Shown here in pieces: positions 6,383 through 58,902 of a stretch of 64,000 bases of DNA. Each line of letters opens with the position of its first letter. Positions within the stretch are counted from its first letter, which is position 1. Position numbers and translations under genes: made by a program. Below the pieces are notes generated by a model. The model searched no databases, was not told the DNA's origin, and saw only the letters and a program-made list of their open reading frames with translations. This DNA is from Bacillota bacterium (GTDB lineage: Bacteria; Bacillota; UBA994): assembly GCA_009773495.1 (NCBI GenBank), contig WSXW01000003.1, positions 70,551 to 134,550 on the forward strand, read 5' to 3'.

Positions 6383-6508
6383 TCCCTTTCTGTTTGCACT
6401 TTAGGCTGTCTGTTTCCCTTTCTGGTTGCACTTTAGGTTGTCTGTTTCCCTTTCTGGTTGCACTTTAGGTTGTCTGTTTCCCTTTCTGGTTGCACTTTAG
6501 GTTGTCTG
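6383..6508. repeat. 32-bp tandem direct repeat, about 4 copies
   Basis: Unit TGTCTGTTTCCCTTTCTGGTTGCACTTTAGGT repeats head-to-tail: 6407-6438, 6439-6470, 6471-6502, plus a degenerate copy at 6383-6406. No spacers are present. Confidence 0.9.
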
Positions 6509-6911
6509 AATACCCCACAATCGCGAGGTGAAAGCGGCGCCCCCGCTTTAGCATAGGTTCTAGCCCGTATTTTATTGCAACAAAAGAACCTCCTAAGCCA
6601 AAGAGCCCTAGCAATAGGCCGTAAATTTCGCTGCCTAGGGCTTGACTGCCATATATGGCCCCAGTAAAGAGAAATATGAGAGGTGCCACATAGACTAGGA
6701 AAGCAGCTGTGAGTACATCTGTATCTTGGAGCTCAAGAGTTACCTTCTCCCCGGGCTTAGCATGAATCATATTCTTCGCTTCGACGTAGATGTCCTTCAT
6801 TTCATGGGCTAAACCACACTTTTGGTGGCAGTTCGCACAGGCAGAATGTTGCACTACCCTGACCTGGGCGATATCTCCTCTAAGCTCAACAATTTCACCG
6901 AATTGGCGCAT
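6465..6911 (-). CDS. RseC/MucC-family protein (sigma-E regulator / SoxR-reducing system component)
   Basis: N-terminal GDIAQVRV...SACANCHQKCG plus two TM helices. The listed C-terminus is read from the tandem repeats, so the true stop is uncertain. Confidence 0.55.
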   Translation of the reverse strand: MRQFGEIVELRGDIAQVRVVQHSACANCHQKCGLAHEMKDIYVEAKNMIHAKPGEKVTLELQDTDVLTAAFLVYVAPLIFLFTGAIYGSQALGSEIYGLLLGLFGLGGSFVAIKYGLEPMLKRGRRFHLAIVGYSDNLKCNQKGKQTT

Positions 6912-7183
6912 GGCTCTCCCTCCTTCTCACTTCATTGTACAACCGAGACTATCGCTGGTCAAACGATGTGTAGGAGAGTATATAAAAGTTGCCGTTGTCG
7001 TAATTTCGGACTCGTGCTATAGTCTATAACGTTAGGAAACAGTAAGTAATGGTAAGCCTGAATTCACTGAACTGATACGAGGACTGATGTTGCGATGACA
7101 AAGAATTGCCATCAGAGTACCTCAGTTTTATCAGGTTCATCAGGATCTAGTGCCAATCATCTCCGCCGTGCTCGGTCTGTGTC

Positions 7184-8545: not shown

Positions 8546-8582
8546 AAAGACCGATAAGCAAACTGCTTACCGGTCTTTTAAA
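8546..8582 (+). terminator. rho-independent terminator after the MFS gene
   Basis: AAGACCGATAAGCA-aac-TGCTTACCGGTCTT hairpin followed by TTTTAAATT. Confidence 0.65.
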
Positions 8583-8881
8583 TTACCCCCACAATGCCGT
8601 TAACCCTTTGTTTTGAACCTGCTCTCTGCAGGTGGGTAACCGCACTATGTACCTCGCGAATCCGGCTTAGCGGCTGCCACTCAGTACATTGTTATTGGTT
8701 TCCCATTTTGTTGGTGTTAGGAACAAAACTCTCGGGCCTCACGCACATCGCAGGGCAAACTGCGTAATAAATCTGTTTCTTGGTTCTATCTTAGCACGCT
8801 TCATTGTCCACTCGCAACATGAAAATACTGTATCACTTGGCAATGTAGTATGAATAGACTGTAGCAGAGGGAGGTGAAAGC

Positions 8882-18334: not shown

Positions 18335-18670
18335 CTAGACGGCTTCTGTGCTCTCCAGTTTTGTTTCCGGTTTATTCTCTAAGCTTTTTATTTGTTGATC
18401 TTTCTTCGTGAGCTCTTCGCCCCGTTTCTTAATCTCGGCTTCGAGTTCGCGTACCCTCTTCGACTTACCGAGGATACTGGGGGCGGAGAACACTACGCCG
18501 AGCAGCACGCCTATGGCCAACATACCGATGATCACGGCTGATAACGGTACAGCCACCAAGCCGAACCCTAAGAAGGTGATGTCAACTAGTAAAGCATTTT
18601 GTACTGCGAACAGGGCAACTATCAGGGCAAAAGCTAATACTAGGATAAGCTTAACTGGCATCTTACTCAC
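18335..18670 (-). CDS. LapA/DUF1049-like membrane protein with a coiled-coil tail
   Basis: Two TM helices, then ELEAEIKKRGEELTKKDQQIKSLE. Confidence 0.5.
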   Translation of the reverse strand: MSKMPVKLILVLAFALIVALFAVQNALLVDITFLGFGLVAVPLSAVIIGMLAIGVLLGVVFSAPSILGKSKRVRELEAEIKKRGEELTKKDQQIKSLENKPETKLESTEAV

Positions 18671-18887
18671 TCCATATCACGGGATATAGCATATAATTCG
18701 TAATTTAAAACGCAAACTCCTGCAGGAGATGGAAAAAAGGCGACAGGAGAGGAAGTGTAGCATAGTAAGCAGAGTCGTTCCTTGTAGAGAGCGTTTCTAG
18801 TTCCTCGCAACGAAGATCAAGGAACGCCACATCGCCTTCCGGCAACCGCTTTAGTGCTGTAGGCACGACTGAGGAAGTATTATCTCT

Positions 18888-39084: not shown

Positions 39085-39216
39085 CAAATCAAAGTGCCCA
39101 TGCTAGGAAACATGGGCACAAATTATTGTGCTTAAGCTTCCCTACGCTGGTCTTAACCAGATCAGGTTCAAAGGGTCAGGGACATAGCTCCCTATCTCAG
39201 CCCAGCGGGCCCCCCT
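39085..39216 (-). promoter_or_regulatory. TPP (THI-box) riboswitch with a terminator expression platform
   Basis: Minus strand reads GGGGGGCCCGCUGGGCUGAGAUAGGGAGCUAUGUCCCUGACCCUUUGAACCUGAUCUGGUUAAGACCAGCGUAGGGAAGC. This matches the TPP aptamer consensus (CUGAGA ... ACCCUUUGAACCUGAUCUGGUUAAUACCAGCGUAGGGAA). It is followed by a GUGCCCAUG...CAUGGGCAC hairpin and a U-run. Confidence 0.85.
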
Positions 39217-39352
39217 AGCAACAATATGCTGTTACTATATAGTTTATCATGGAAAGTGAGAAGTGCAAGAGTGTAAATTGAGCAACGGTACCTCGTACAT
39301 CGTACTTAGCACCTCGTAGAATAACGAAATACGATGTACGAAGTACGACTTA

Positions 39353-40605: not shown

Positions 40606-41763
40606 TTATGCGCTGACGTAACCTGCTTTAACTAATATTGAAAGTGCCTTGGCATGGTCCTCTTTTGCAGTGAGGATTACTGGGCCGGTGCAGCCCATAC
40701 CAGTGGTGGCAAAGATGCCCACCTTCCAGACTTCGCGCACGGCAGTCTCAAGGTCTAGAATATCAATGCCGGAAATTTCTTCAGTGACGGGCTTGGCTGG
40801 AGGTAAAATAATTTCTTTCTCTTCAGCCGGGATCTCCGCCTTGGCCTCTTTTTTAAAGAGACCAGGCAGGTCAGCCTTATTAGCGGCAACGAACTCCTGG
40901 GCTACTACATCAAGCAGCTTCCCCTTGGCTACATCGCCGGCGTACTTGATAGCACCAGCTACAACTGGAGCGCCAGAGGCACGCGAGAGGATGAGGATGA
41001 TCTTATCCAGACCTTCACCCACGCCAGGCCCATAACCATAACCTAAACTCTCATAGTCACCACCAGTGGTATAGGCAGAAAAGACCTTCATGAGGACGTT
41101 GCCGGTAAGAGTATCTGTCACCATGATATCCGGGGCGCCAACTAGGAGATCATTGCCACGCATTACAGAGCCGCCGTCTTGGCGTACTGACTCTGCGAAG
41201 TTAATCTCATAGCCGCTATCTGCCAACCTCTGCAAGCTACGCTCAACGGTACGAGCAGAGTCAACGTTAAGAATGCCCAAAGTGGGGTTAGCGACCCCCG
41301 AAGCCTTAGCTACAGCTATGCCGTAAATCGCATTATTAACCATGGCCTCTACCCTGTCAGTAGCTGATGTTCCAGTGGTAGTGGCGAGAAACATCTCCCT
41401 ACCTCTACCCGGCGTAATCACACGTCCTACAGTGGATACCCCAATAGGGAAGTTGTAGTGCATGGTCACAGCTGCGGCTATTTCACCGCTCTTCAATAGC
41501 TTCTCCATGACTTGATGTTGTGTCTTCTCACAGTCTGCTTCTTCGCGAGTGAGCTTACTGTTGACTGCAGGGCCTATAAGAACGACCTCAAGGTCAGGAT
41601 TAGCCTTGGCAGCTAGCTCGGCGCCGCGAACGATCTCATCAATGCCGTGCTCACTACCAAGCAAGGTTACACCAATCCGTGTACGGCTACCAAATACTCC
41701 TGTTTCTAGAGCATCAGCAATCTCACCAAATACTTTTGCGACGAGTTTTTTTGCGTCTGTCAT
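40606..41763 (-). CDS. grdD: glycine reductase complex protein C, alpha subunit
   Basis: 385 aa, conserved GrdD N-terminus, last gene of the grd cluster. GGAGGTG RBS upstream. Confidence 0.75.
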   Translation of the reverse strand: MTDAKKLVAKVFGEIADALETGVFGSRTRIGVTLLGSEHGIDEIVRGAELAAKANPDLEVVLIGPAVNSKLTREEADCEKTQHQVMEKLLKSGEIAAAVTMHYNFPIGVSTVGRVITPGRGREMFLATTTGTSATDRVEAMVNNAIYGIAVAKASGVANPTLGILNVDSARTVERSLQRLADSGYEINFAESVRQDGGSVMRGNDLLVGAPDIMVTDTLTGNVLMKVFSAYTTGGDYESLGYGYGPGVGEGLDKIILILSRASGAPVVAGAIKYAGDVAKGKLLDVVAQEFVAANKADLPGLFKKEAKAEIPAEEKEIILPPAKPVTEEISGIDILDLETAVREVWKVGIFATTGMGCTGPVILTAKEDHAKALSILVKAGYVSA

Positions 41764-41778
41764 ATTATCACCTCCCGC

Positions 41779-43320
41779 CTATTTGGCGTCGGAAAGAGAT
41801 TCTGCCAGAGCACGCATAGCTTCGGCAATTAGTTTGCGTACCTCGCCCTCATCAATACCGCCTGTAGCCTGTTTAGTGGTACCGGGGTTAGCTTCCATCA
41901 CAAAGGAAACGCCATCGAAGAGATTTGTCATGCGAGCGAGGAATAAGCTTCCTTTACCAATGATCATGGCGCGCTTAATTTCGCCCTTCATCATCGCCTC
42001 ACGAGCCAGACCTATTACCGGCACACCCGATGGTACGTGGCCTTGGGTAGGTGCAAAACCAGGCATGCCATGCTTCTCTACAAAGCTGTTGAGATCGGCG
42101 CGCTCAATATCGCCACGCTTAACACCAAGGGCAGCAATCATTTTGTAGTTAGCAAGCGGAACATCGCCGGCCCCTGCAGGTACGGTTACTTCGGGGTTCT
42201 GCATTTCTACAGCAAATAAGTCAACCTCAGTTAACTTGATGTTGTTGCGATCCAAGGGGTCGGTTACTATAGCCTGCATAACGGACTGCGGACTAGAGCC
42301 GGAACCGATAGTATGTCGGCCCACAACGTCGGTACGGATAATTGGATTAATGCCGTCATTCTCAGATACCCAGATGGCGAAACCACCCATAATGTCCTCT
42401 AGAATAGGCAGGTTCTTCTTAGCGTGATCTTTGCCGTTCATACCAAGTTTAGCCGTAGCACCACCAGCTACTACTACCACGTTTTTATATACGCCAGCTT
42501 TAACTAGAGCTGCCGCAGTGACCATGGCGTGAGCCGGAGCAGCGCAGAATCCTCTCGTGTCACTGCCAGTAGCATTAACACAACCCACTACTTCGCCGAT
42601 AGCCTTGGCAAAGTTACCGCCGCCGCGCTGATTCATATCACCGCAGGCTTCCTCAGAACATTCGATGATGTAATCGACAGCCCTAGGGTCTAGGCCAGCT
42701 TTCAAGAAAAGATTACGGACAGAGACTACAGCGGACGCCATAGCCGAGATGTTTTCGAATATGATGTGTGCACTTAAGGATTCATCACTATCATGAGCCT
42801 GGCGCACACAACCAACCAAGCGATTACCTAAACGCAGAGGTTCGGCAACATGTGCTTCTACCTGCCTAGCGATGGTCGCCTCGTCGGAGGTCTTGTCGAG
42901 CTTACTGAGGTTCGCGCCCGCGAAGGCAGGGTGCTTAGCTAATAGTTCTTTAACCTCAATCGCAAACTTTTCTTCGATGAGCACGAGATCAAAAGAATCT
43001 ACTAACTTCATTACGCCGTAGAATTCGTCCTCGGGCATAATTTCGCCCCTTGTTCCGAAACGGTTCGCACCTTTACGACTGTTCTCGTACCAGGGCTTAG
43101 CAACCTGCTCGAGAGATTTTGGCAGGATGTTGCCGATATAGGCTTGATTAGGTGCATAATCTACGCAATCTGCAAAACTTCTGAGATGTTCAGGAAGGGC
43201 CTTGAGATAGTCACTATTCGGATTCTTGGCACGTTCTACGGTCTGGGTTGTGCCGTGGTCCAACAGGATGTTTGGTGTATGAAACAGGGCATAGGCAGCC
43301 CCTTTAATAACAGGAAACAT
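41779..43320 (-). CDS. grdC: glycine reductase complex protein C, beta subunit
   Basis: About 513 aa starting at MFPVIKGAAY, with GGAGGTG 6 nt upstream. Thiolase-like fold typical of GrdC. Confidence 0.75.
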   Translation of the reverse strand: MFPVIKGAAYALFHTPNILLDHGTTQTVERAKNPNSDYLKALPEHLRSFADCVDYAPNQAYIGNILPKSLEQVAKPWYENSRKGANRFGTRGEIMPEDEFYGVMKLVDSFDLVLIEEKFAIEVKELLAKHPAFAGANLSKLDKTSDEATIARQVEAHVAEPLRLGNRLVGCVRQAHDSDESLSAHIIFENISAMASAVVSVRNLFLKAGLDPRAVDYIIECSEEACGDMNQRGGGNFAKAIGEVVGCVNATGSDTRGFCAAPAHAMVTAAALVKAGVYKNVVVVAGGATAKLGMNGKDHAKKNLPILEDIMGGFAIWVSENDGINPIIRTDVVGRHTIGSGSSPQSVMQAIVTDPLDRNNIKLTEVDLFAVEMQNPEVTVPAGAGDVPLANYKMIAALGVKRGDIERADLNSFVEKHGMPGFAPTQGHVPSGVPVIGLAREAMMKGEIKRAMIIGKGSLFLARMTNLFDGVSFVMEANPGTTKQATGGIDEGEVRKLIAEAMRALAESLSDAK

Positions 43321-43404
43321 TTGGTCACCTCCATTGGATTCAAGAACAAAATGAGGCCCGAATCTAAAAAGTGCGGGCGGGGTTCCCGCCCGCACCAAAG
43401 CGGT

Positions 43405-44718
43405 TTACTTGTCGAAAACAACCTGTCCGTGTACTTCTGTCTCAAGTGCTCTCAGCGCTCTACGCACCAGCTTACGACGAAGTTCCTTCTCTTCACCAGC
43501 GGTAAGGAGAGGATTGCCCAGCGGGTACGGAATAGCTACAGTTGGAATAATGCGGTTAGCACCAACTGTGAGCGAAATCGGCACAACCGTGCACATATGA
43601 GCAACAGGTAGTCCAGCGCGTTCAATTTCCTTTACCATCGTTGCACCGCAACGTGTACAGGTGCCTCAGGTACTGGTAAGAATTACTGCTTGGACGCCAT
43701 CGTTAATAAGTTCTTGTGCGAACTTCTTCGCGAAAGCTACAGAGTTGTTAACGGAAGTACCATTACCAACTGTTGTGTAAAAATAACGATGCAATTCGCC
43801 AATCTCCCCGGCTTGCTCCATCTCGCGGAGGACATCCACCGGTAGAACACGGTCAGCGTCTTGATTAGCATATGTGGGGTCATACCCACCGTGAGCGGTA
43901 GCGTAAGTGTCTGAAGTCAAATCGGTCACACCGGCGATATCGTACTTACCGTACTTGCTAGCGCTAGATGACTCGATATGGTCCGGGTTACCCTTAGGCA
44001 CAATACCACCGGAGGTAACGAGAGCAATCTTAGCCTTGGCAGCGCATGCAATAGGCTGGTTGGGAGCAACGCGGTCGAAATGTGGCATGGCGTATTCTGT
44101 GGTGAAAGGCTGCCCATTGATTTTGGCGATGAGCATATCTACGGCACGTTTCGAACCACGCTCGGTGTGGAAGTAATTCTGGCGAATGCCGCGAGCCATG
44201 TAGCCATGAGTCTCTGGACTTACTTCTTCACCCTGCCCGAGAGCTACAACCACCTTAATGATAGCTGGAACGGCTTTGCGCATATCTGCGGCGCTGTTAC
44301 TGGTCTGTACGATATATGCGAACTTACGATACATATCCACACCTGGGTTTTCAGGGTACATGCCGGTGACTACAGGGATCGCAAGTTCTTCTGTAATCGC
44401 TTTAGCTACAGCACCGCAAGCAACACCGTAACGCCCTGCGTTAAAAGCTGGGCCAGCGATGACAACATCAGGCTGATGTTTCTTAATCATCCCGATGACA
44501 GTGGACAAGGCTTCATCTAGGTTTTCGTTGAAATAGCTGTCACCGCAGATTACAGTGGCTACGATTTCGCCTGCATTTCCTAGAGCGGCCTGGAGAGCTT
44601 GACCGGGGCCTACAACACCTGCACGTTCTTCGGGACGATAGTCAGCCTTGTCTTCGCCGCCAATGCCGCCGTAGAACTGGTTCAGGTAATGTACAACCCT
44701 AATTTTCTGGTTGCTCAT
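43405..44718 (-). CDS. grdB: glycine/sarcosine/betaine reductase selenoprotein B (contains in-frame UGA=Sec at 43666-43668)
   Basis: ORFs 43666..44718 and 43405..43638 share one frame and are joined through TGA. The junction reads ...U-G-T-C-T-R-C-G-A-T-MVKEIERAG. A CGUUGC-ggu-GCAACG hairpin lies about 15 nt after the UGA. Confidence 0.8.
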
Positions 44719-44751: not shown

Positions 44752-45216
44752 CTACTTACCGTATTTGCTATGAGAATCACGCATGTTGCCTACTTCAGCG
44801 TTAATGGCCGGAACATCGAGTACCATTTCCATCATGCTGATTTGTTCCTCGTAGATTTCTGCATCAACTTGCTCTTTAAGTTCGAAAATGTGATAGACTG
44901 CGAGCCCTAACTGGACTCCTGCCAAAGGACCGGCGAAGGTTGGATCACCAGCAGTTACGGTCTCAGCAGCGAGGCCTGCAGCCTCAGCTTCTGCGCCACC
45001 AAGAACAACAACAATGTTCTCAGCACCGTACTTTTCTGTGAGTTCCTTAACCCTACGTTGGTTTTCCAGATCCATGGCACCTGCGGCTGTTCAGACAAAA
45101 CACTCGGTAACTGAGAACACGACTTCAGCGCCAGCGGACTTCACGCATTCTTCAATGGCTGGTCCTGGCACGCCGTCGCGGTCACCAAGAATGACCACTT
45201 TTTTGCCTTTAAGCAT
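44752..45216 (-). CDS. grdA: glycine reductase selenoprotein A (in-frame UGA=Sec at 45091-45093)
   Basis: Reading upstream of the listed 107-aa ORF in frame gives [53 protein letters not shown]... This is the GrdA CxxU active site. GGAGG lies 8 nt before the ATG at 45216. Confidence 0.85.
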
Positions 45217-45335
45217 GGTTTCGAATACCTCCTTCATTGTTAATCATGACTCGTGAAACTTGAAACATGAATCGTCACCTGAGGGTGTGTTCTGACTAAG
45301 GTCAGAGTTCACGATTCATGATTCATGAGTAGCGC

Positions 45336-47103: not shown

Positions 47104-48324
47104 CTAACGCAATTCGTCAATCTTAGCCTTTATGGCAACTTCGGTAATTTCGTCTTCGACCAAGCGTGAAGCAACTTCGCCGCGATGGAAGAAGAGCACT
47201 GTTGGATTCTGGACAACACCATAACGGGTTGCAACCCGCTGGTTACGATAGGTATCCATCTTCCAGAGTTTTACTGACTGACCGCCGGATGCGAGTGCGC
47301 CCTCAATCATAGGCATCATCTCGATACTCTTACCGCCCATAGGAGTCCAGAAAACGACTGCAACTGGACGTGACTCTGCGAGTACTGAGTCCCGGAAGCC
47401 CTCTTCTTCGATGAGGAATTTCTCAGCGGCTACGGCAGCGATAGCGCCGTCTGCAGCAGCAGTGACAACCTGGCGAAGGTACTTAACTCTAGCGTCCCCG
47501 ACGGCGAAAACGCCATCAACGTTTGTCTCCATGCGGTCATCGGTAATAATGTAGCCACGTGAGTCAAGATTAACTACACCTTTTAGGAAATCTGTTTGTG
47601 GAACGGTACCAACATAGATAAATACACCGTTTGTCTCCATCTCGGTGAGTTCGTTGGTCTTGATGTTCTTAAGAACAACAGCCTCAACTATGCCGTCCCC
47701 CTTAATCTCATTTATTGTAGAGTTCCATACGAACTTGACCTTAGGGTTTTTGAAGGCGCGTTCTTGTAGCATAGGCGCAGCGTCGAGTATCCCCTCATCG
47801 TGTATAGCTATTATCGTTACCGAATTGGCAAATTTAGTAAGGTGGTTGCCCTCTTCAATGGCTGCGTCGCCGTTGCCAAGGACTACAATGTCTAAATCAG
47901 TAAAGAAGTCAGCATCACAGGTGGCACAATAGGATACACCCTTGCCGCGCAGAGCGTGCTCGCCTTTTACACCTAATGTACGCGGGACTGCTCCTGGTGC
48001 AAAAATGAGAGTATGCGCTTTGTACTCGGTACCGTCTTTGCAACGCACAATCTTCTTCTCAGCGTCAATAGACACAACTTCATTGCGCACAAATTCAGCA
48101 CCAAAATGCTTGGCATGTTCGGTGAAAGCGTTCATCAGGCCAGGGCCTGTAGTGCCAGCAGCAAAACCAGGGTAGTTTTCCATGTCTTCCGTAGTAGCTG
48201 CCTGACCACCGGTCTTCCCCTTTTCGATAAGCAAGGTCTTAAGTTTTGATCGGGCGCCATAAATAGCAGCTGAAAGACCGCCAGGGCCGCCGCCCACTAT
48301 GATAATATCCCAAATATTAGACAC
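47104..48324 (-). CDS. trxB: thioredoxin reductase fused to a C-terminal thioredoxin-like domain lacking the CxxC motif
   Basis: FAD motif GGGPGG, redox CATCD and an NAD(P)H site. An extra ~95 aa has a Trx fold but FWTPMGG in place of WCGPC. GTG start with AAGGAGA upstream. The first ~60 codons of the listed ORF are non-protein-like. Confidence 0.7.
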   Translation of the reverse strand: MSNIWDIIIVGGGPGGLSAAIYGARSKLKTLLIEKGKTGGQAATTEDMENYPGFAAGTTGPGLMNAFTEHAKHFGAEFVRNEVVSIDAEKKIVRCKDGTEYKAHTLIFAPGAVPRTLGVKGEHALRGKGVSYCATCDADFFTDLDIVVLGNGDAAIEEGNHLTKFANSVTIIAIHDEGILDAAPMLQERAFKNPKVKFVWNSTINEIKGDGIVEAVVLKNIKTNELTEMETNGVFIYVGTVPQTDFLKGVVNLDSRGYIITDDRMETNVDGVFAVGDARVKYLRQVVTAAADGAIAAVAAEKFLIEEEGFRDSVLAESRPVAVVFWTPMGGKSIEMMPMIEGALASGGQSVKLWKMDTYRNQRVATRYGVVQNPTVLFFHRGEVASRLVEDEITEVAIKAKIDELR

Positions 48325-48545
48325 AAAGGCCACTCTCCTTCTGTAGTTTATATGAGCAGAGCGACAAGCGCTCGGCACAAGTGAGGGAACGGGCAGTGAG
48401 CATTGAGCAGGAGTTAGGCTTGAGGCTTTAGGCGTTAGAAGTACGGCAAGCGCCTTCCACGATCCACACGTCTGAACTATCCGTGTTCTGTGTACGCCGT
48501 TCCACAAGGAACAAGGAATGCCTCATGTGCTATGTGCCGCCCCGC

Positions 48546-48932
48546 TTACAACTTCCCTGCCATGCGTAACGACTCAAGTCCAGAATCTAGAAGTGACTTA
48601 TCAATAAGTTGCAGATCTTTGATTGCCTGCGTCGGAAAATCGCGATAGGGACGTTCTTTAACCATCCTCCGGGCAACTTCAAGACATCCTTCAGCAATCT
48701 GTACTGATTGGTAGTCTACACCTAAATCGCCCTTGGTAACCACAACGGACCTAAACGGATTTTCGTTAGGCTTGACACTTCCGGCAAATGGATGTGTTAG
48801 CAAATGATGGCCTAAATGAACAAGATCTCGTACCCTCTCCAGTACCGGCACGACTCCGTAATCAGTTACATGTATATCTGTTGAGGTGAGTTCTACAGTT
48901 GGGTTATTGCTGACTATTGTTATGTATCTCAT
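48546..48932 (-). CDS. grdX: glycine reductase complex component GrdX (putative)
   Basis: 128-aa protein in the first position of the grdX-trxB-trxA-grdE-grdA-grdB-grdC-grdD order conserved in glycine reductase operons. GAAGGAA RBS upstream. Confidence 0.5.
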   Translation of the reverse strand: MRYITIVSNNPTVELTSTDIHVTDYGVVPVLERVRDLVHLGHHLLTHPFAGSVKPNENPFRSVVVTKGDLGVDYQSVQIAEGCLEVARRMVKERPYRDFPTQAIKDLQLIDKSLLDSGLESLRMAGKL

Positions 48933-49191
48933 GGCGCGGTTCCTTCAATACCTTTTCAATAGCTCTAGTCAACTCAATGATGGTATCGGCTGCGATCTGG
49001 ACGTCGAGTGAGCTCACCCTAGTGAATATGGCCCCTCGCTCTGTCACGACGTAGCGCGGCGGTAGGTTGTTTAGCGCAATCGCCATGATGTCATACCTGC
49101 ACCTTTCGCACGTGCAAATCTTTACGATATTAGGTAGCATCTCGTCCAATTTTTCGAATACAATGTCTTGAGTTATGTTCTTGAGCAGCAT
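48904..49191 (-). CDS. ComFB-like small Cys-rich protein
   Basis: CTCERCRYDIMAIALNNLPPRYV pattern (CxCxxC plus ALNxLPPxY), reminiscent of the ComFB family. It is the first gene after the glycine riboswitch. Start is at MLLKNIT, with AAGGTGG upstream. Confidence 0.45.
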   Translation of the reverse strand: MLLKNITQDIVFEKLDEMLPNIVKICTCERCRYDIMAIALNNLPPRYVVTERGAIFTRVSSLDVQIAADTIIELTRAIEKVLKEPRHEIHNNSQQ

Positions 49192-49209
49192 ACAATAACC
49201 ACCTTTCAT

Positions 49210-49415
49210 AAAAAAATGAACGGCAAAGCATGCCGCCCAATTCTCTGTCCTGAAATACCTGAGAGATTCCGCGGCCCTCCGCTTGCTCCTTCGGTGCCAT
49301 AACTGGCTTTCCAGAGTGCTGTCAGCAGTGCGGTCCTTTTGCCTGAGAGTTTATGCTGCCTTTGGCGAAAGGTCAGATTGCTCCTTCGGCGCCCCAGTAG
49401 GGGTCTCTCCCGCTA
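49210..49415 (-). promoter_or_regulatory. tandem glycine riboswitch (two aptamers) with a terminator, leader of the grd operon
   Basis: Aptamer 1 on the minus strand reads GGGAGAGACCCCUACUGGGGCGCCGAAGGAGCAAUCUGACC...CUCUCAGGCAAAAGGACCG. Aptamer 2 reads CUCUGGAAAGCC...GGCACCGAAGGAGCAAGCGGAGGGCC...CUCUCAGGUAUUUCAG. Both have the GGAGAG / ACCGAAGGNGCAA / CUCAGG cores. They are followed by a GGGCGGCA-ugcuu-UGCCGUUC hairpin, a U7 run and then the ATG. Confidence 0.85.
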
Positions 49416-49589
49416 GCTTCTTCCAGCTAGTATGTTGTTCTTACCTAGAGAATATCATGCTTAAGACAAGCCTGCAAGGCAAATTTAGACTATGGGGCAG
49501 GAATAGACCTCGCTGCGGTAGAATAGTGTACTAGACTGAGCACATCGACAAAAATCTGGATATTTATTGTGAAAGGGGTAGTGATCACG

Positions 49590-50432
49590 GTGACTCGTAA
49601 GGTGACTATTATTACTGATAGCGCTGCAGACCTACCACGTGAGATTGCTTTACAACGTAATATACGCATAGTACCCTTGTATGTGACACTAGGGGACGAT
49701 ACCTTTAAAGACGGGGTGGAGTTAACCCCCGATGAACTCTATCTCAAAATGAAGTTCGACAAGGCTGTGCCTCGTACCAGCCAGCCCTCCCCAGAGGATT
49801 TCCGCCTGGCCTTTGAGGAATCCTCCCCTCCACATGTCCTTTGTCTGACTATATCCGCAAACCTTAGCGGTACACTCCAGAGTGCGGAACTGTCAAAAGA
49901 ATTATTATCCGAATCAGTACAAGTTACTACATACAATACCAAGAACGCCTCCCTTGGCGAGGGGCTAAAGGTACTAATAGCAGATGACCTTGCCCAAATA
50001 GGGCTCTCGGTCTGCGAGATTATCAACAGGCTAGACGCGCTTAAGCTGCGCACTATTTTTACCGTGGATCATCTACAATACCTTGAGCGAGGCGGGCGCA
50101 TTTCTAAGGCCCAAGCTACGATGGCTGCAGTGCTCGATATTAAACCTATCCTCACGATGTCGTCGAATGGCCTCATCGAGAATGTGACCAAAGTTAGGAG
50201 TCGGCAAAAATCTATCCGCTATCTCTTAGAGCAAATGGAACAGGATCTTACTTCACAGTACGCTGGCTACATTGCCCTAAGCTACGCTTTCTGCCCCGAG
50301 GAAGCAGAAAAAGTCTTAGCTGTAATTCAGACTAAATACCCCCAAGCAAAAATAGTGACTGGACCCATCGGCGCAGCCATCGGCTCGCATACCGGACCAG
50401 GCTGCCTCGCACTGTTCTACGAACTGAAGTAA
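49590..50432 (+). CDS. DegV-family fatty-acid-binding protein
   Basis: VTIITDSAADLP N-terminus and the DegV fold. Length is about 280 aa. Confidence 0.8.
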   Translation: MTRKVTIITDSAADLPREIALQRNIRIVPLYVTLGDDTFKDGVELTPDELYLKMKFDKAVPRTSQPSPEDFRLAFEESSPPHVLCLTISANLSGTLQSAELSKELLSESVQVTTYNTKNASLGEGLKVLIADDLAQIGLSVCEIINRLDALKLRTIFTVDHLQYLERGGRISKAQATMAAVLDIKPILTMSSNGLIENVTKVRSRQKSIRYLLEQMEQDLTSQYAGYIALSYAFCPEEAEKVLAVIQTKYPQAKIVTGPIGAAIGSHTGPGCLALFYELK

Positions 50433-50508
50433 CCAAAAGAGCGTGTCTATGGTCGTAGTATTGCTTCTGACGAGCAGGATAATCGTCCACGCTAAAATCC
50501 TGTGTAGG

Positions 50509-50552
50509 GCACGACCACGCTAAAAGGGGCTGTTACTGCAACAGCCCCTTTT
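50509..50552. repeat. conserved hairpin-terminator element, copy 2 (bidirectional terminator between degV and selD)
   Basis: GCACGACCACGCTAAAAGGGGCTGTTACTGCAACAGCCCCTTTTG. The 9-bp stem is perfect, with A-runs and T-runs on both sides. It shares the flank with the copy at 18888. Confidence 0.65.
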
Positions 50553-50587
50553 GCACACAGCGCATCTTCTAGTGATGTGATTCGTCG

Positions 50588-51661
50588 TCACAGCTCAGTT
50601 TCATGTTGAACTGCAAAGCACTTGCGTTCCACCACTTTTATGGGCCCTGCACTGCCGGATTTGCATTCACCCACACAGGCGGCGTCTACTCCAGCCGCAC
50701 GCAGTTGCTTTAGGGCCTCAGCAACGCGCTCTGCTGGCACTGCAAACAACAAGCCTCCACTCGTCTGCGGATCATACAGAATATCTCTTATTCTTTCCTC
50801 CACACTATCTGCAAACTCCACGCCCACGCCAAAGTGTTCTGCATTTCGATAAGCCCCGACAGGAATGAGTCCCATAGATGCATACTCAGTGGCGCCCGGC
50901 AGCAGAGGTATCTCGGAAACCCACAGCTCTAGCTCAACTTTACTGGCTCGGGCTAGCTCCATACAATGTCCAAGCAGACCAAATCCCGTAATATCAGTGC
51001 CACCACGCACACCAAAGCCCTTAAGTATTTCGGCTGATGTACGGTTAAGCATAGCCATTTGTTGTAATGCAAACGCCACATGAGAATCATCAGCTAAACC
51101 TGCCTTACTGGCTGTAAAAATAATGCCGCTACCTAAAGGCTTTGTCAGAATGAGCTTGTCTGTTGCTCTCGCTCCGGCGTTACTTATAATTTCTTTTGGG
51201 TGCACTGTTCCTGTAATAGATAGACCATATTTAACGTCCTGATTCTCAACTGTATGACCGCCTAAGACAACTACTCCGGCTTCCAGGCACTTGTCTGCCC
51301 CGCCGCGCATTACCTCGCCCATTACCTCAGGTTCAATGCAGGTTGCATAACAAACTATGTTGAGAGCAGTGAGCGGTGTCCCGCCCATAGCGTATACATC
51401 GCTTAAAGAATTAGCGGCAGCTATCTGCCCGAACATATAGGGATCGTCGGTCATGGGTGAGAAGAAGTCTAGCGTCTGCACAAGGGCAACGTCATCGGAA
51501 ATTTGGAATACGCCAGCATCATCACTTGTATCCAAACCAACCAAAACTCGAGCGTCTATAACTGTCGGCATAGCTGCCAGCAGCTTACTAAGGACTCCCG
51601 GTCCTAATTTACTGGCTCAGCCACCTCCTGATGAGAGTTCAGTTAACCTAACGTACCCCAT
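50588..51661 (-). CDS. selD: selenide, water dikinase (selenophosphate synthetase), Sec-containing form (UGA at 51617-51619)
   Basis: Extending the listed ORF upstream in frame gives MGYVRLTELSSGGGU-ASKLGPGVLSKLLAAMPTVIDAR... Sec replaces the active-site Cys. An AGGAC-cggga-GUCCU hairpin starts 11 nt after the UGA. Confidence 0.8.
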
Positions 51662-52590
51662 CGGTGCTTCCTCCCTTCTACTAGCTGACGTGCTTCCGGG
51701 GATCGAAGGAAGTTCGCCAGTTCTGCCACCGCCCGCCCACCATAGCGATGAGGCATAGTAATTAAGAAGAACGGGCGAGCGAACTTAACGCCTGCCAAGC
51801 TTACCGCGGTTGCTGTACCAAGTAAAAGAGACTTTTCAGCGGCGTACATTGACACCAAAGCCACGCCCAAGTTGGCCTCGACCGCGTTAACAGCCGCTAG
51901 GGAAGTTCCCACTTCCAAAACCGGTGTTAGTCGACTTGGCGAAAGACCAGCTGCAGAGAGTTCTCGTTCATATACGGAGCGACTTCCTGAGCCAGAGGCC
52001 CTACCCACAAACGGTTCCCCGTACAATTCCTCGAGAGCGACTTCTTTAAGACGGGCGAAACGGTGACTGGGATTAACTAGAAAAATTATCTCATCACTAA
52101 AAACAGCTTCCGCTCGCACCGTAGGATCTTTTGGCTGAGCGCCTACAATACCAAGATCGAGTTCCCGCCGATTGAGTTTATCTATAATTACGTTGGTGCT
52201 ATCTACTATCAGTCGCGGTTTTACACGCGGATATCTTTGTGTAAAAGCTCTAATGAGCTGCGGGCACAACTGTTCTCCTGGCACAGTACTCGCCCCTAAG
52301 AAAACAGGGCCTGCCACTTCTCCCATCATTTCATCTATCTGCCTGCGAGTGGTATCTACATCGTCTAACAGACGAGCTACACTAAGCGCGGCAAGCTCCC
52401 CTGCGCGCGTTAACTCCATTCCCTTGCTATTGCGTTCGATCAGCTTAGTGCCGAAGTAATCCTCCAAGGCCTGGATATGCATACTCACTGCAGGCTGAGT
52501 GAGGCCAAGCTGCTTGGCAGCTGCAGAAAAAGACCCTGCCTCCATAATAACGGAAAATGTTCGAAAATAGTTCAAATTCACTGCATCCAC
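51643..52590 (-). CDS. LysR-family transcriptional regulator
   Basis: N-terminal HTH FSAAAKQLGLTQPAVSMHIQALE and the LysR substrate-binding domain. Confidence 0.8.
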   Translation of the reverse strand: MDAVNLNYFRTFSVIMEAGSFSAAAKQLGLTQPAVSMHIQALEDYFGTKLIERNSKGMELTRAGELAALSVARLLDDVDTTRRQIDEMMGEVAGPVFLGASTVPGEQLCPQLIRAFTQRYPRVKPRLIVDSTNVIIDKLNRRELDLGIVGAQPKDPTVRAEAVFSDEIIFLVNPSHRFARLKEVALEELYGEPFVGRASGSGSRSVYERELSAAGLSPSRLTPVLEVGTSLAAVNAVEANLGVALVSMYAAEKSLLLGTATAVSLAGVKFARPFFLITMPHRYGGRAVAELANFLRSPEARQLVEGRKHRWGTLG

Positions 52591-52674
52591 CCCACTCGCT
52601 TAATAAGAATAACTATACCATAACCTCACCCCATTTCTCACTTTTTCATAAAGTGAACTGTGAGGGGGTGAAAA

Positions 52675-54563: not shown

Positions 54564-54659
54564 TGGCGGGAGTATGTGGGAATCGAACCCACCGCGGACT
54601 GAGTCTAGCCCGCTGCCGGATTTGAAGTCCGGAAGGCACACCAGAACCTATCTACTCCC
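54564..54659 (-). tRNA. selC: tRNA-Sec (anticodon UCA)
   Basis: Minus strand reads GGGAGUAGAUAGGUUCUGGUGUGCCUUCCGGACUUCAAAUCCGGCAGCGGGCUAGACUCAGUCCGCGGUGGGUUCGAUUCCCACAUACUCCCGCCA. It has an anticodon loop CUUCAAA, a long variable arm, a GGGUUCGAUUCCC T-arm and an encoded CCA. It lies immediately downstream of selB. Confidence 0.85.
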
Positions 54660-54669
54660 AAGACCTAGT

Positions 54670-56601
54670 TTAGCATGGTAGATTAGCACTGTCAAAGGAA
54701 CTGTTAAGCCTGCGGCTTTCTCCCACTCGCAAAGTAAGCTTTTTCTGATCAAAATATTCTAGTAAAGGCAGAGCAAATTTGCGGCTGCTATCTAGCATGG
54801 TGCGAAATGTAGCTAAGGTCAATTCTTGTTCCTGCGCGAAATGCTCCTGTACCATATCCTTGGCTTGGCATACGGCTGCTCGTGCAAAATACATACCTTC
54901 TGCTATCTTCACTAGCTCTTGCGCTTCGACGAGTGCATCTAAGAGCTCTCGCATGTCTTCAGCAGACAGCTTGATACTATCGACTATTTCTTCCATAGTC
55001 GGGGGGCTATACATTTGCTTAGAGTACAAGCTCAAGGCCAGGTCACGCGCCCGCTGCCATTTTCCGGTGAACTGAACTGTAAAATCGTTGAGAGCAACCG
55101 CACGAGCAGTCAACTTGAGTCTGGCCTCGCCTTGTAACGCCAATAACAGTGCGCTAAAGACTCTGGCGTTAACGGACGGCAATATCCGGCTACGCAACTC
55201 CTCGCGCGATATGCCAGCCCTTAAAGGATAACGCTTATGATGGTCAGCTAAAATCGTAGCGAACCTTTCGCTGAGGTGCGCGATCGTATCGCGATGAATA
55301 ACGTAATCTACATCGTCTGCGCGCATCTCAACAACGAGTTCTTCACTAATTAATAGTTCTAAGGCGTCCTCGGCATCAGCTTTACCAACAGACTTTAGGA
55401 CTTCTTGACGGCTTAATAATCGATCATTATACCTCGCGATGCGTTGGCTTAAGATATCTGCTGTACTGCCGCTTTCTAAAACGCTTAGCTCATGCAGTCC
55501 TTTTTCCTTAAATCTCTTACGTTTCTCTGGAAGTGGGTCGAGAACAGTCCCGCCACCTATGGTAACCATGGGGGAATATGAGCGCATCACGAAACGGTCG
55601 CCGGCCCTTAGTGCAGTTGGCTCCTCCAGACGAAACTGAACAAAAGCGCTCTCACTAGGCAACAACTCTTGGCTGTCTAGCAGTACTACCCTGCACAGAA
55701 TCTCAGCTGTACCTGCATACAGTCGGACTCTCTGACGGTTGCTCAATATTTTCTCCACGTCAGGGAGCAGCGTCACCCGCGCATCCAACATCATGGTCGG
55801 TGTAAGGGAGCCGGGCGCAGTAAGAATATCTCCACGGTTCACCTGTTCAACTGTCACTCCTGCCAGATTCAAGGCGGTCCTTTGTCCCGCTTCAGCCCGA
55901 TCAACTTGCTTGCCGTGTACCCCCACTCCCCTTACTCTCACAAAGAGCTGAGAAGGCTGAATTTCTACTGTATCACCGGGTCGAACGGTGCCGGAAAGTA
56001 GCGTACCGGTAACCACTGTTCCAAAGCCTTGGACAGTGAATACGCGATCAATTGGCAGACGAAAAGGCAAGTTAGAATCGCGCGGATTTACGTCTTCACA
56101 AAAACGGTCTATCGTATCCGTTAGCTCCGGCAGTCCTCTTCCTGTGATTGCAGATACGGGTATAATGGGGGCTTCAGCCAGACATGTACCCTGAACCTTG
56201 TCACGAATTTCGAGCATAACAAGTTCTAGCCACTCCTCCTCAACTAGGTCGGCCTTAGTTAATACGACAATTCCTTGTTTCACCTGCAATAACGAGAGGA
56301 TGTGCAGGTGCTCTGCTGTCTGTGGCATTACACCTTCATCAGCGGCGACAATTAATAACACTAGATCCATGCCGCCAACACCAGCCAACATATTCTTAAT
56401 GAACTTTTCATGCCCAGGTACATCTACTATGCCCGCCCTGCGCCCGCTAGGTAGGTCAAAATAGGCAAAACCCAAATCTATGGTGATGCCCCGCAATTTT
56501 TCTTCCTTGAGTCGGTCGCAATCAATATTTGTTAAAGCTTTGACTAGAGTCGTCTTACCATGGTCAATATGACCAGCTGTACCAATTATGACGTGCTTCA
56601 T
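54670..56601 (-). CDS. selB: selenocysteine-specific elongation factor
   Basis: GTPase G1 motif [10 protein letters not shown] and EF-Tu-like domains, plus a long C-terminal winged-helix SECIS-binding extension. Length is 643 aa. Confidence 0.85.
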
Positions 56602-57977
56602 GATTTTTCCCCAGCTGCCTTACGTAGGGATACTAACAAGTCCTCGGTATCGTGAGGGAGAATGGTACGGGGATCAAGCAACACCCGATCGTGAAGTATT
56701 CTAGCTATAACGGGGATCTCAGCCTGCCGGAGACGCCCTTCGAAGCTCACACAACTCAGGGGAGAGGTAATCGCTACAGCAAAGCCTGGTATATCTCTGC
56801 CCGGCAGGGAACCTCCCCCCACCTGGCCGACGCATTCAATAACTTGCGCAGTAAGTCCTGCTATGGCGTTAACCTTATCTCTAAGTTCCTCTGCTGCATG
56901 AAACAAATCATCCTGACTCAAATTTAGCATGCGCACGAGGGGTATCTCCTGCCTATGCTCGGCGTGACGATAAAGTCTGAGGGTACTTTCTAAGGCGGCC
57001 AGAGTCATCTTATCGAGGCGCAAGGCCCGTGCTAAGGGGTGAGTGCGTATGCGAGCAATGCATTCGGCCTTACCTACAATCAGGCCAGCCTGTGGCCCTC
57101 CCATGAGCTTGTCGCCACTAAAGGTGACTATATCCATGCCTGTCGCCACGATTTCCTGCACCGTTGGCTCCCCGTAACCGGCAATCAACACGCCACTGCC
57201 TAAATCCTCAATTGCCAGCAACCCATGCTGATGACTAAGTTCTACAAGTGCTTCGGTACTTACATCTTCAGTGAAACCAATCACGCGAAAATTGCTCGTG
57301 TGCACCTTGAGTAAAGCCGCTGTATTGTGATTAATAACCCGTTCGTAATCACTAAGGTGAGTTTTGTTTGTTGCGCCTACCTCGCGTAGTAAGGCCCCGC
57401 CTTGTTCCATAACATCAGGAATTCTAAAGGATCCCCCTACTTCCACAAGTTGTCCGCGCGAAACAACGACCTCTTTACCCTGGGCCAAAGAGCTTAACAC
57501 CAGTAGTACAGCCGCTGCGTTGTTATTGACAGCTATTGCATCTTCGCATCCAGTTATCTCCCGCAGCAACTCCCGCACGTGGTCATGCCTGCTACCACGT
57601 TCACCCCTAGTCAGATCATATTCCAAGTTCGAATAGCCTCGAGCAGCCTGAACTACCGCGGCAATTGCTTGTTCCGCCAAAGGTGCGCGACCCAAGTTCG
57701 TGTGTAAAGGTATGCCTGTAGCGTTAATGACTCTCCGCAGGCTAGGAGAGTTACGCCGCTTAGTCTCTTTTGCAACCATCTCACCTATACTACTTATGGA
57801 TATCAGAATATCTAGTGATTGCGAGCCAATAGCTATCGACTCCCGTAGCTCTTGTAAAACGTTGCGCAGCACCACAACGACCTGTTCCCTCCCATGCTCA
57901 GCAACTAGGTCTTGGATAGCTCTGTTAGCGAGCAAATCATCCATCTTGGGTATCAGCCTGTACAGGTCACTGGTCAT
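56598..57977 (-). CDS. selA: L-seryl-tRNA(Sec) selenium transferase
   Basis: 459-aa PLP enzyme with the SelA pattern. Its stop overlaps the selB start by 4 nt. Confidence 0.8.
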
Positions 57978-58902
57978 GGCCGGTCACCCCGCTCAGATAC
58001 TTCTCAACGATAGATGCGACCAGTGCGCCATCTCCGACAGCAGTGGCCACTTGACGCAACACCTTTTGCCTGACGTCCCCTGCTACCAATACACCTTCAA
58101 CCGATGTACTTAAGTGCTGGTCAGCAACAACATAACCGCTATGGTCGAGCTCAATGATTGTGCGCAAAAACTCGGTATTAGGCTGGAGTCCGATATAGAT
58201 AAATATCCCATCGACCGGGATAGTTTCAATCTCGCCAGATTTTACGTTAGCCAGGGTGAGAGATGTTACTTTGGTGTCACCATAAATGGCTTCTACAATG
58301 GTATCGAATTTCACTGTTATCTGTGGGTTACGCATAGCTCGTTTAGTAAGAATAGGCGTAGCACGGAACGAATCGCGGCGATGCACGAGAATTACCTCTT
58401 TGGCGAAGCGAGTGAGAAAAACTGCTTCTTCTACCGCGGAATCAGAACCGCCTACTACGACCACCCTTTTGTCTCTGTATAAAGCCCCGTCACAAGTAGC
58501 GCAATATGACACCCCTGTGCCCCTAAACCTAAGCTCGCCCGGCACGCCTAGTTCCCGCGGGGAGGCACCCGTAGCCACGATAACACACTTAGCCTGATAT
58601 GTGCCGCCGTGCCCCTCCAGGAGCTTAACTGGCCCTACCAGTTCAAGTCTGTGGATTTCGTCGTAGATCACCTCAGCCCCAAAACGCTGCGCTTGGTCTA
58701 GCATTGATAACGCTAGATCTACACCGCCTATACCTTGAGCAAAGCCAGGGTAGTTTTCGATACTAGCTGTAGTGGCCATTTGCCCACCCGGTGCGAGCTT
58801 CTCAATAACGACTGTTTTGAGGCTAGCTCGGGCACAGTAGAGTGCCGCCGTTAACCCTGCTGGACCTGCTCCTAAGATGCAGACATCGTATATCTTGCTC
58901 AC
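57967..58902 (-). CDS. trxB: thioredoxin reductase
   Basis: GAGPAG FAD motif and CATCDG redox centre, 311 aa, GTG start. Its stop overlaps the selA start. Confidence 0.85.

Follow-up and report, generated by a model that had tools for sequence, protein, structure and literature searches.

A selD gene with an in-frame UGA at its catalytic codon, overlapping a LysR-family gene in an uncultured Bacillota bacterium

Selenide, water dikinases and the locus under study

SelD, the selenide, water dikinase, is the second most widespread selenoprotein family of prokaryotes (PMC13188914; PMC1794560). Selenocysteine (Sec) forms of the enzyme, known as Sec-SelD or SPS2, are found in Haemophilus influenzae, Aquifex aeolicus, Clostridia and Methanococcus and in mammals as SEPHS2. 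They are characterized by a UGA at the catalytic position within a G-U-x-x-K loop, by an AIRS/AIRS_C fold, and by a bSECIS element that lies directly downstream of the UGA inside the coding region. Cys-type SelD enzymes belong to the same family and have the same length, but encode Cys (TGC or TGT) in place of the UGA. These include the Escherichia coli enzyme (PDB 3u0o) and a set of Negativicutes homologues (P0033-P0043). A further relevant group is the LysR_Se/HrsM subfamily of transcriptional regulators, which adjoins selA, selB or selD in distant organisms and has been proposed to sense selenophosphate, as set out in the accessible text of Lin et al. 2015 (PMC5322559). A conserved Pro in the substrate-binding domain is among the residues specific to this subfamily (PMC5322559).

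The window analyzed here is a 64,000-nucleotide stretch of a Bacillota genome that contains a selD gene on its minus strand, with a LysR-family gene directly upstream (Table 1). This selD shares the UGA position, the G-U-x-x-K loop and the AIRS/AIRS_C fold of Sec-SelD/SPS2, along with a candidate bSECIS directly 3' of the UGA, and shows no difference of kind from these enzymes. It belongs to an uncultured Bacillota/Peptococcaceae-like clade whose members are 60-87% identical, and it carries the motif GGGUASKLGPG, compared with GAGCGCKISP in E. coli SelD. The A. aeolicus enzyme (PDB 2yye/2zod), natively a Sec protein and reportedly crystallized as a Cys mutant, aligns from residue 4 and shows ...SSGCAAKVGPG... 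in this region. The Negativicutes proteins (~55% identity) are full-length Cys forms, 343-346 aa long; MVKLTQHAKNGGCAGKIGP is an example of their N-termini, and their motif reads ...NGGCAGKIGP....

Table 1. Features of the selD locus and of the surrounding window.
Feature	Position in window	Strand	Details
6S RNA	8582-8759	-	Rfam, 73.1 bits; unrelated to selD
TPP riboswitch	39122-39226	-	Rfam, 78.8 bits; unrelated to selD
Two ORFs after grdB	41779-43398, 40606-41763	-	probable grdC/grdD candidates
grdB	43405-44718	-	UGA 43668-43666, motif TSTUGTCTRCG
grdA	44752-45237	-	UGA 45093-45091, motif CFVUTAAGAMD
trxB-trx fusion	47104-48507	-	467-aa listed ORF; Pyr_redox_2 residues 67-354, Thioredoxin 366-464
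grdX-like gene	48546-48932	-	
comFB-like gene	48904-49209	-	
Glycine riboswitch aptamer	49321-49422	-	RF00504, 57.5 bits; upstream of comFB-like gene
Terminator-like hairpin	50522..50552	-	perfect 14-bp stem AAAAGGGGCUGUUG-CAG-UAACAGCCCCUUUU; between convergent selD and degV
selD, selenide, water dikinase, predicted Sec form	50588..51661	-	start ATG 51661-51659; stop TGA 50590-50588; translation, profiles, structure alignment
Plain ORF of selD	50588..51571	-	327 aa, N-terminus MPTVIDAR
Candidate bSECIS stem-loop	51576..51616	-	two-part stem
Codon of predicted Sec15, in-frame UGA	51617..51619	-	equivalent to E. coli SelD Cys17
LysR-family regulator gene	51643..52590	-	stop TAA 51645-51643; last 19 nt overlap selD start
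selD Shine-Dalgarno GGGAGG	51670..51675	-	8 nt upstream of ATG; within LysR coding sequence (codons ...VEGRK...)
Promoter-like site	52612..52641	-	GTGAGA, 18-nt spacer, TG-TATAGT; ~20 nt upstream of LysR start; consensus scan
MarR regulator and subtilase genes	between tRNA-Sec and lysR-selD	+	
tRNA-Sec (selC), anticodon UCA	54564..54659	-	ARAGORN; Rfam RF01852, 77.7 bits; 10 nt downstream of selB
selB, Sec-specific elongation factor	54670..56601	-	TIGR00475, 388 bits (cutoff 242)
selA, selenocysteine synthase, consumes SelD's selenophosphate	56598..57977	-	TIGR00474, 575.4 bits (cutoff 268)
trxB, thioredoxin reductase	57967..58902	-	TIGR01292, 381.7 bits; overlaps selA start

Reading frame and conservation across the UGA

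An initial annotation, made from the sequence, had listed selD as an ORF beginning MPTVIDAR and placed the real N-terminus upstream of it, through a TGA. It also proposed that SelD is itself a selenoprotein and that the extended gene overlaps the 3' end of the LysR gene by 19 nt. The ORF start, the upstream extension in the same frame and the overlap (LysR ORF end at 51643, selD start at 51661) all hold. The Sec-type assignment is supported by homology across the UGA, by the position of the UGA at the catalytic Cys/Sec residue, by a stem-loop and by Sec machinery nearby, features from which Sec insertion can be predicted. Upstream of the plain ORF, the frame reads MGYVRLTELSSGGG*ASKLGPGVLSKLLAAMPTV..., with 14 codons, the start ATG included, before the UGA. 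The complete coding sequence, established from sequence and translation, comprises 357 codons including Sec15.

Family searches were carried out with the UGA-encoded residue replaced by Cys. The 357-residue product scores 378.8 bits against TIGR00476 selD (cutoff 125) over residues 5-311 and 341.4 bits against NF002098 (cutoff 299), with NCBIfam matches that begin at residue 4 or 5 and extend to at most 341. For P0001, the identical 327-aa product, the precomputed annotation lists AIRS and AIRS_C domains (PF00586, PF02769). E. coli SelD aligns over residues 4-339 (E 1.9e-73). This alignment with a Cys-form enzyme, a check proposed in the initial annotation, places U15 on Cys17 and Lys18 on Lys20, the catalytic residues of the glycine-rich loop, and the 30 upstream codons on E. 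coli residues 6-32. Because the equivalents of Cys17 and Lys20 fall there, the 30 codons before the annotated start encode the catalytic loop, and a protein beginning at Met31 would therefore lack it.

Thirteen closer relatives at the DNA level (60-87% identity) were available for comparison, four from a genome collection (L001-L003, L006) and nine obtained via exact protein look-ups (L087-L095). The genome-collection scan, run with a single SelD protein, returned six loci, the window's own genome being absent from it; a metagenome scan returned loci of 44-52% identity among the matches listed. A megablast search of the plasmid collection gave no match. All 13 closer relatives carry TGA at the identical codon, and their starts lie 13-14 codons 5' of it, behind GGGAGG or AGGAGG at the same spacing. 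Protein conservation extends to both sides of the UGA, with the consensus RLTxLSxGGG*ASKLGPG. Among the 86 matches listed (L001-L086), the catalytic codon is TGA in 58 and TGC or TGT in 15, while 12 show no motif and one (L026) is a spurious match. The ~30 next protein relatives (60-87% identity) have all been called as fragments of 304-331 aa beginning just after the UGA, with arbitrary annotated starts such as MGPGVLSKLL... and LGPGALNKIL....

One NCBI-derived SelD homologue, P0037, has an internal duplication and carries Trp at the Sec position (...SAGGWAAKIGP...). Translation with UGA read as Trp, or a mis-assembly, is the probable cause, and the entry is a further case of a mis-annotated Sec-selD.

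These comparisons bear on a first competing interpretation, in which SelD is a 327-residue protein initiated at ATG 51571 and the frame upstream is non-coding or open by chance. Such a protein corresponds to the plain ORF and to the deposited annotation, KAF0197511.1 ('MAG: selenide water dikinase [Bacillota bacterium]', 327 aa), an identical fragment from which residues 1-30, and with them the catalytic residue, are missing. However, the 327-aa form would be devoid of the glycine-rich loop that bears the catalytic Sec/Cys and Lys. The 30 codons before 51571 show homology to SelD, and every relative conserves the protein sequence that they encode. Nor is a start at 51571 conserved: the Met is Leu in most relatives, and the gene-caller starts nearby are arbitrary. 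Both findings that the initial annotation had named as contrary evidence, a conserved Cys-form SelD with that start and a lack of homology in the upstream codons, are thereby excluded. In the sequence read (minus strand, 50400-51900), a GGGAGG precedes 51661, whereas no Shine-Dalgarno sequence precedes 51571. A 327-residue enzyme is thus exceedingly improbable.

A second interpretation treats the gene as a selD pseudogene, a former Cys-type gene whose catalytic codon mutated to a stop. A single TGC or TGT to TGA change would suffice to produce such a picture in one genome, but 13/13 close relatives and most of the distant ones have TGA at the same codon. The 342 codons after the UGA are intact and strongly conserved, and the UGA is followed by a conserved hairpin with a compensatory change, described below. 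Moreover, the full Sec machinery and the two other selenoprotein genes in the window would need a SelD. The chance that selD is a decayed Cys-type gene appears very small.

The candidate bSECIS element and Sec decoding

Directly 3' of the UGA lies a candidate bSECIS stem-loop, predicted from a fold of the 48 nt that start at the UGA. Its lower stem pairs GCCAGUA with UGCUGGC (51616-51610 with 51582-51576), and its upper stem pairs AGGAC (51605-51601) with GUCCU (51595-51591) around an apical loop, CGGGA (51600-51596). The upper hairpin begins exactly 11 nt after the UGA, in agreement with the initial annotation. The consensus bacterial SECIS model (bSECISearch, summarized in PMC13188914) describes a loop of 3-9 nt, an upper stem of 4-16 bp, an MFE <= -7.5 and a UGA-loop distance of 16-37 nt; it also expects G among the first two loop nucleotides, with G or U as the usual next base. 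The selD hairpin agrees on every count, with a 5-nt loop, a 5-bp stem, an MFE of -16.1 kcal/mol, two consecutive G residues from loop position 2 (CGG), and a spacing of 16 nt, which is the lower limit of the model. These generic rules discriminate poorly: 65/66 Sec forms satisfy them, and so do 12/12 Cys forms.

When the window and its 13 relatives are aligned without gaps, 92.9% of the cells of the upper helix and only 71% of those of the lower helix are paired. Pair 18-26 is G-C in eight and A-U in six of the 14 sequences and is never broken, making it fully compensatory; the switch couples a synonymous Gly GGA/GGG change with a Val GUC/Ala GCC change. The 14 sequences are phylogenetically related, and this compensation may represent a single evolutionary event. 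Compared with synonymous recodings that preserve the peptide, the native sequence ranks in the top 2.7-3% for stability. A 4-bp core in the window's register is present in 39/66 distinct Sec forms and is never complete in the 12 distinct Cys-type sequences (Fisher p = 9e-5), and this register-specific test is the only one that separates Sec from Cys forms.

Several other observations weaken the case for this element. Hairpin stability did not differ significantly from dinucleotide shuffles (z -1.05 and -0.56). Plain MFE did not differ significantly between Sec and Cys forms in three sub-regions (p 0.12-0.5), in a comparison set whose Cys forms are richer in G+C. The Rfam SECIS families (RF00031, RF01988-RF01991) gave no match within 51400-51800 at E <= 10. 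About a quarter of Sec-selD genes possess a different hairpin located further downstream, with the loop starting at ~nt 37.

The window also encodes the machinery on which a Sec-type SelD would depend. The selA, selB and tRNA-Sec genes lie 3-6 kb from selD. The organism is clearly Sec-decoding, because grdA and grdB are classical selenoprotein genes, and selD is the third selenoprotein gene within the window. The grdB element matches Rfam SECIS_4 (RF01990; 43628-43665, 62.1 bits), unlike the selD hairpin. Plain ORF calling splits both grdA and grdB at their UGA. A scan for further TGA-bridged ORFs in the window left selD, grdA and grdB as the only plausible cases; the others, such as those at 6465-6962 and 18335-18763, were rejected as shadows of real genes or chance upstream extensions. 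The Sec machinery appears to form a string, trxB-selA-selB-tRNA(Sec), with trxB at its head, and a dedicated TrxB in this position may serve selenium reduction or delivery.

The presence of this machinery is relevant to a third interpretation, in which decoding of the selD UGA depends on a near-cognate tRNA for Trp or Cys, or on a reassigned code, instead of on Sec-tRNA(Sec). Low-level near-cognate read-through of UGA occurs in bacteria, and P0037 was deposited with Trp at the UGA position, presumably under another code. A reassigned code conflicts with the use of UGA as an ordinary stop by neighboring genes under code 11, including selD's own terminal TGA, and with the TGA stop of LysR in L087, L091 and L095. 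Near-cognate decoding sits poorly with the presence of tRNA-Sec, selA and selB, and Trp at the catalytic position would be expected to inactivate SelD, given the role of Cys17/Sec. Decoding by anything other than Sec-tRNA(Sec) is therefore considered highly unlikely.

Taken as a whole, the window very probably carries a complete selD gene with selenocysteine as the catalytic residue, incorporated by the mechanism proposed here, with Sec insertion predicted from sequence features. Translation would begin at ATG 51661, served by the GGGAGG inside the LysR 3' end, and the ribosome would reach the UGA fourteen codons later. The stem-loop, whose CGGGA loop starts 16 nt after the UGA, would bind SelB carrying Sec-tRNA(Sec), and insertion of Sec would complete the selenium-binding loop, G-G-G-U-A-S-K. 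SelD would then make selenophosphate for SelA and would in this way need its own product pathway, creating positive feedback on selenium supply. An autocatalytic dependence of the Sec pathway on selenium, as proposed in the initial annotation, follows logically and would apply to this gene given the predicted Sec insertion. The idea of such self-dependence was already discussed in the 1990s.

The LysR gene and the wider neighborhood

The LysR gene lies directly upstream of selD in eight relatives (L001-L003, L087-L089, L091, L095), and its 3' end overlaps selD in all eight. The overlap measures 1 nt in L091, 4 nt in L087 and L095, 16 nt in L001-L003 and L089, and 19 nt in L088, as in the window. 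The selD Shine-Dalgarno sequence is encoded by a conserved LysR tail, ...VEGR(K/R).... The overlap and the location of the ribosome-binding site in the LysR tail make co-transcription of lysR and selD, along with translational coupling, probable. The promoter-like site upstream of LysR could possibly serve this transcript, although it is a weak candidate: the consensus scan yielded three sites against 2.1 expected, which is not significant on its own.

Profile searches link the LysR protein to selenium metabolism. Its best family is NF040786 LysR_Sec_metab, with 202.9 bits, about 40 bits above the next. This score is below the curated cutoff of 250, and the protein is therefore not filed as a certified member. 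The LysR proteins of five relatives score 183.6-220.2 bits, all under the same cutoff, so the LysR of this clade constitutes a divergent branch or sister group of the NF040786 family. Like LysR_Se/HrsM regulators, the window's LysR adjoins Sec-pathway genes, with selB, selA and selC within 6 kb, and it probably controls selenium-related genes. The accessible text on LysR_Se/HrsM (PMC5322559) does not mention the overlap with the start of selD, which is conserved here at 1-19 nt.

Downstream of selD, a perfect hairpin separates it from the convergent degV gene. The surrounding 79-nt stretch folds at -32 kcal/mol (z -3.89), with 0/200 shuffles as stable, and the hairpin is flanked by AAAA and UUUU. 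It is likely a bidirectional intrinsic terminator that the consensus terminator scan missed because its T run comprises only four T. Farther along, the glycine riboswitch upstream of the comFB-like gene suggests glycine-induced expression of a glycine reductase operon. The grdX-like ORF of the window has no Pfam match at E <= 1e-5, and its L087 homologue contains PF28011. The real start of the trxB-trx fusion probably lies ~60 codons downstream of the listed TTG, since homologues are called at 406 aa. Beyond the fusion, the minus strand continues with trxA, grdE, grdA and grdB.

A different arrangement occurs in a sister clade comprising L090, L092 and L094 (62-65% identity), where Sec-selD has no LysR neighbor. 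There, selD follows an alanine dehydrogenase/sodium:alanine symporter pair and directly precedes grdX-trxB-trxA-grdE, so that it appears to belong to the cluster of glycine reductase genes.

The selD finding represents ordinary biology combined with an annotation correction, and no new kind of system, because Sec-SelD is so widespread among prokaryotes. Sec-SelD, which ranks among the two most widespread selenoproteins of bacteria, holds no surprise for a specialist. Only the conservation of the lysR-selD overlap within this clade is mildly unexplored. Based on the conserved overlap and gene order, one speculative and rather doubtful model is that a LysR_Se-like gene and Sec-selD form a conserved, translationally coupled module, in which the UGA/bSECIS acts as a selenium-dependent translational gate and, together with a selenophosphate-sensing regulator, creates a positive-feedback, possibly bistable, switch. 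If true, the cell would become committed through such a lysR-selD switch to its selenoproteome, and with it to the neighboring glycine reductase operon under riboswitch control.

The finding matters chiefly for annotation. Nearly every database entry from this clade is truncated at the UGA and has lost its catalytic residue. Automated annotation would, as a result, misjudge the enzyme and undercount the selenoproteome of these uncultured Bacillota. Read through its UGA, as its sequence predicts, the gene would encode a selenium-activating enzyme that itself needs selenium; its neighbors are a full set of Sec-machinery genes and the operon for a selenoprotein-dependent glycine reductase.
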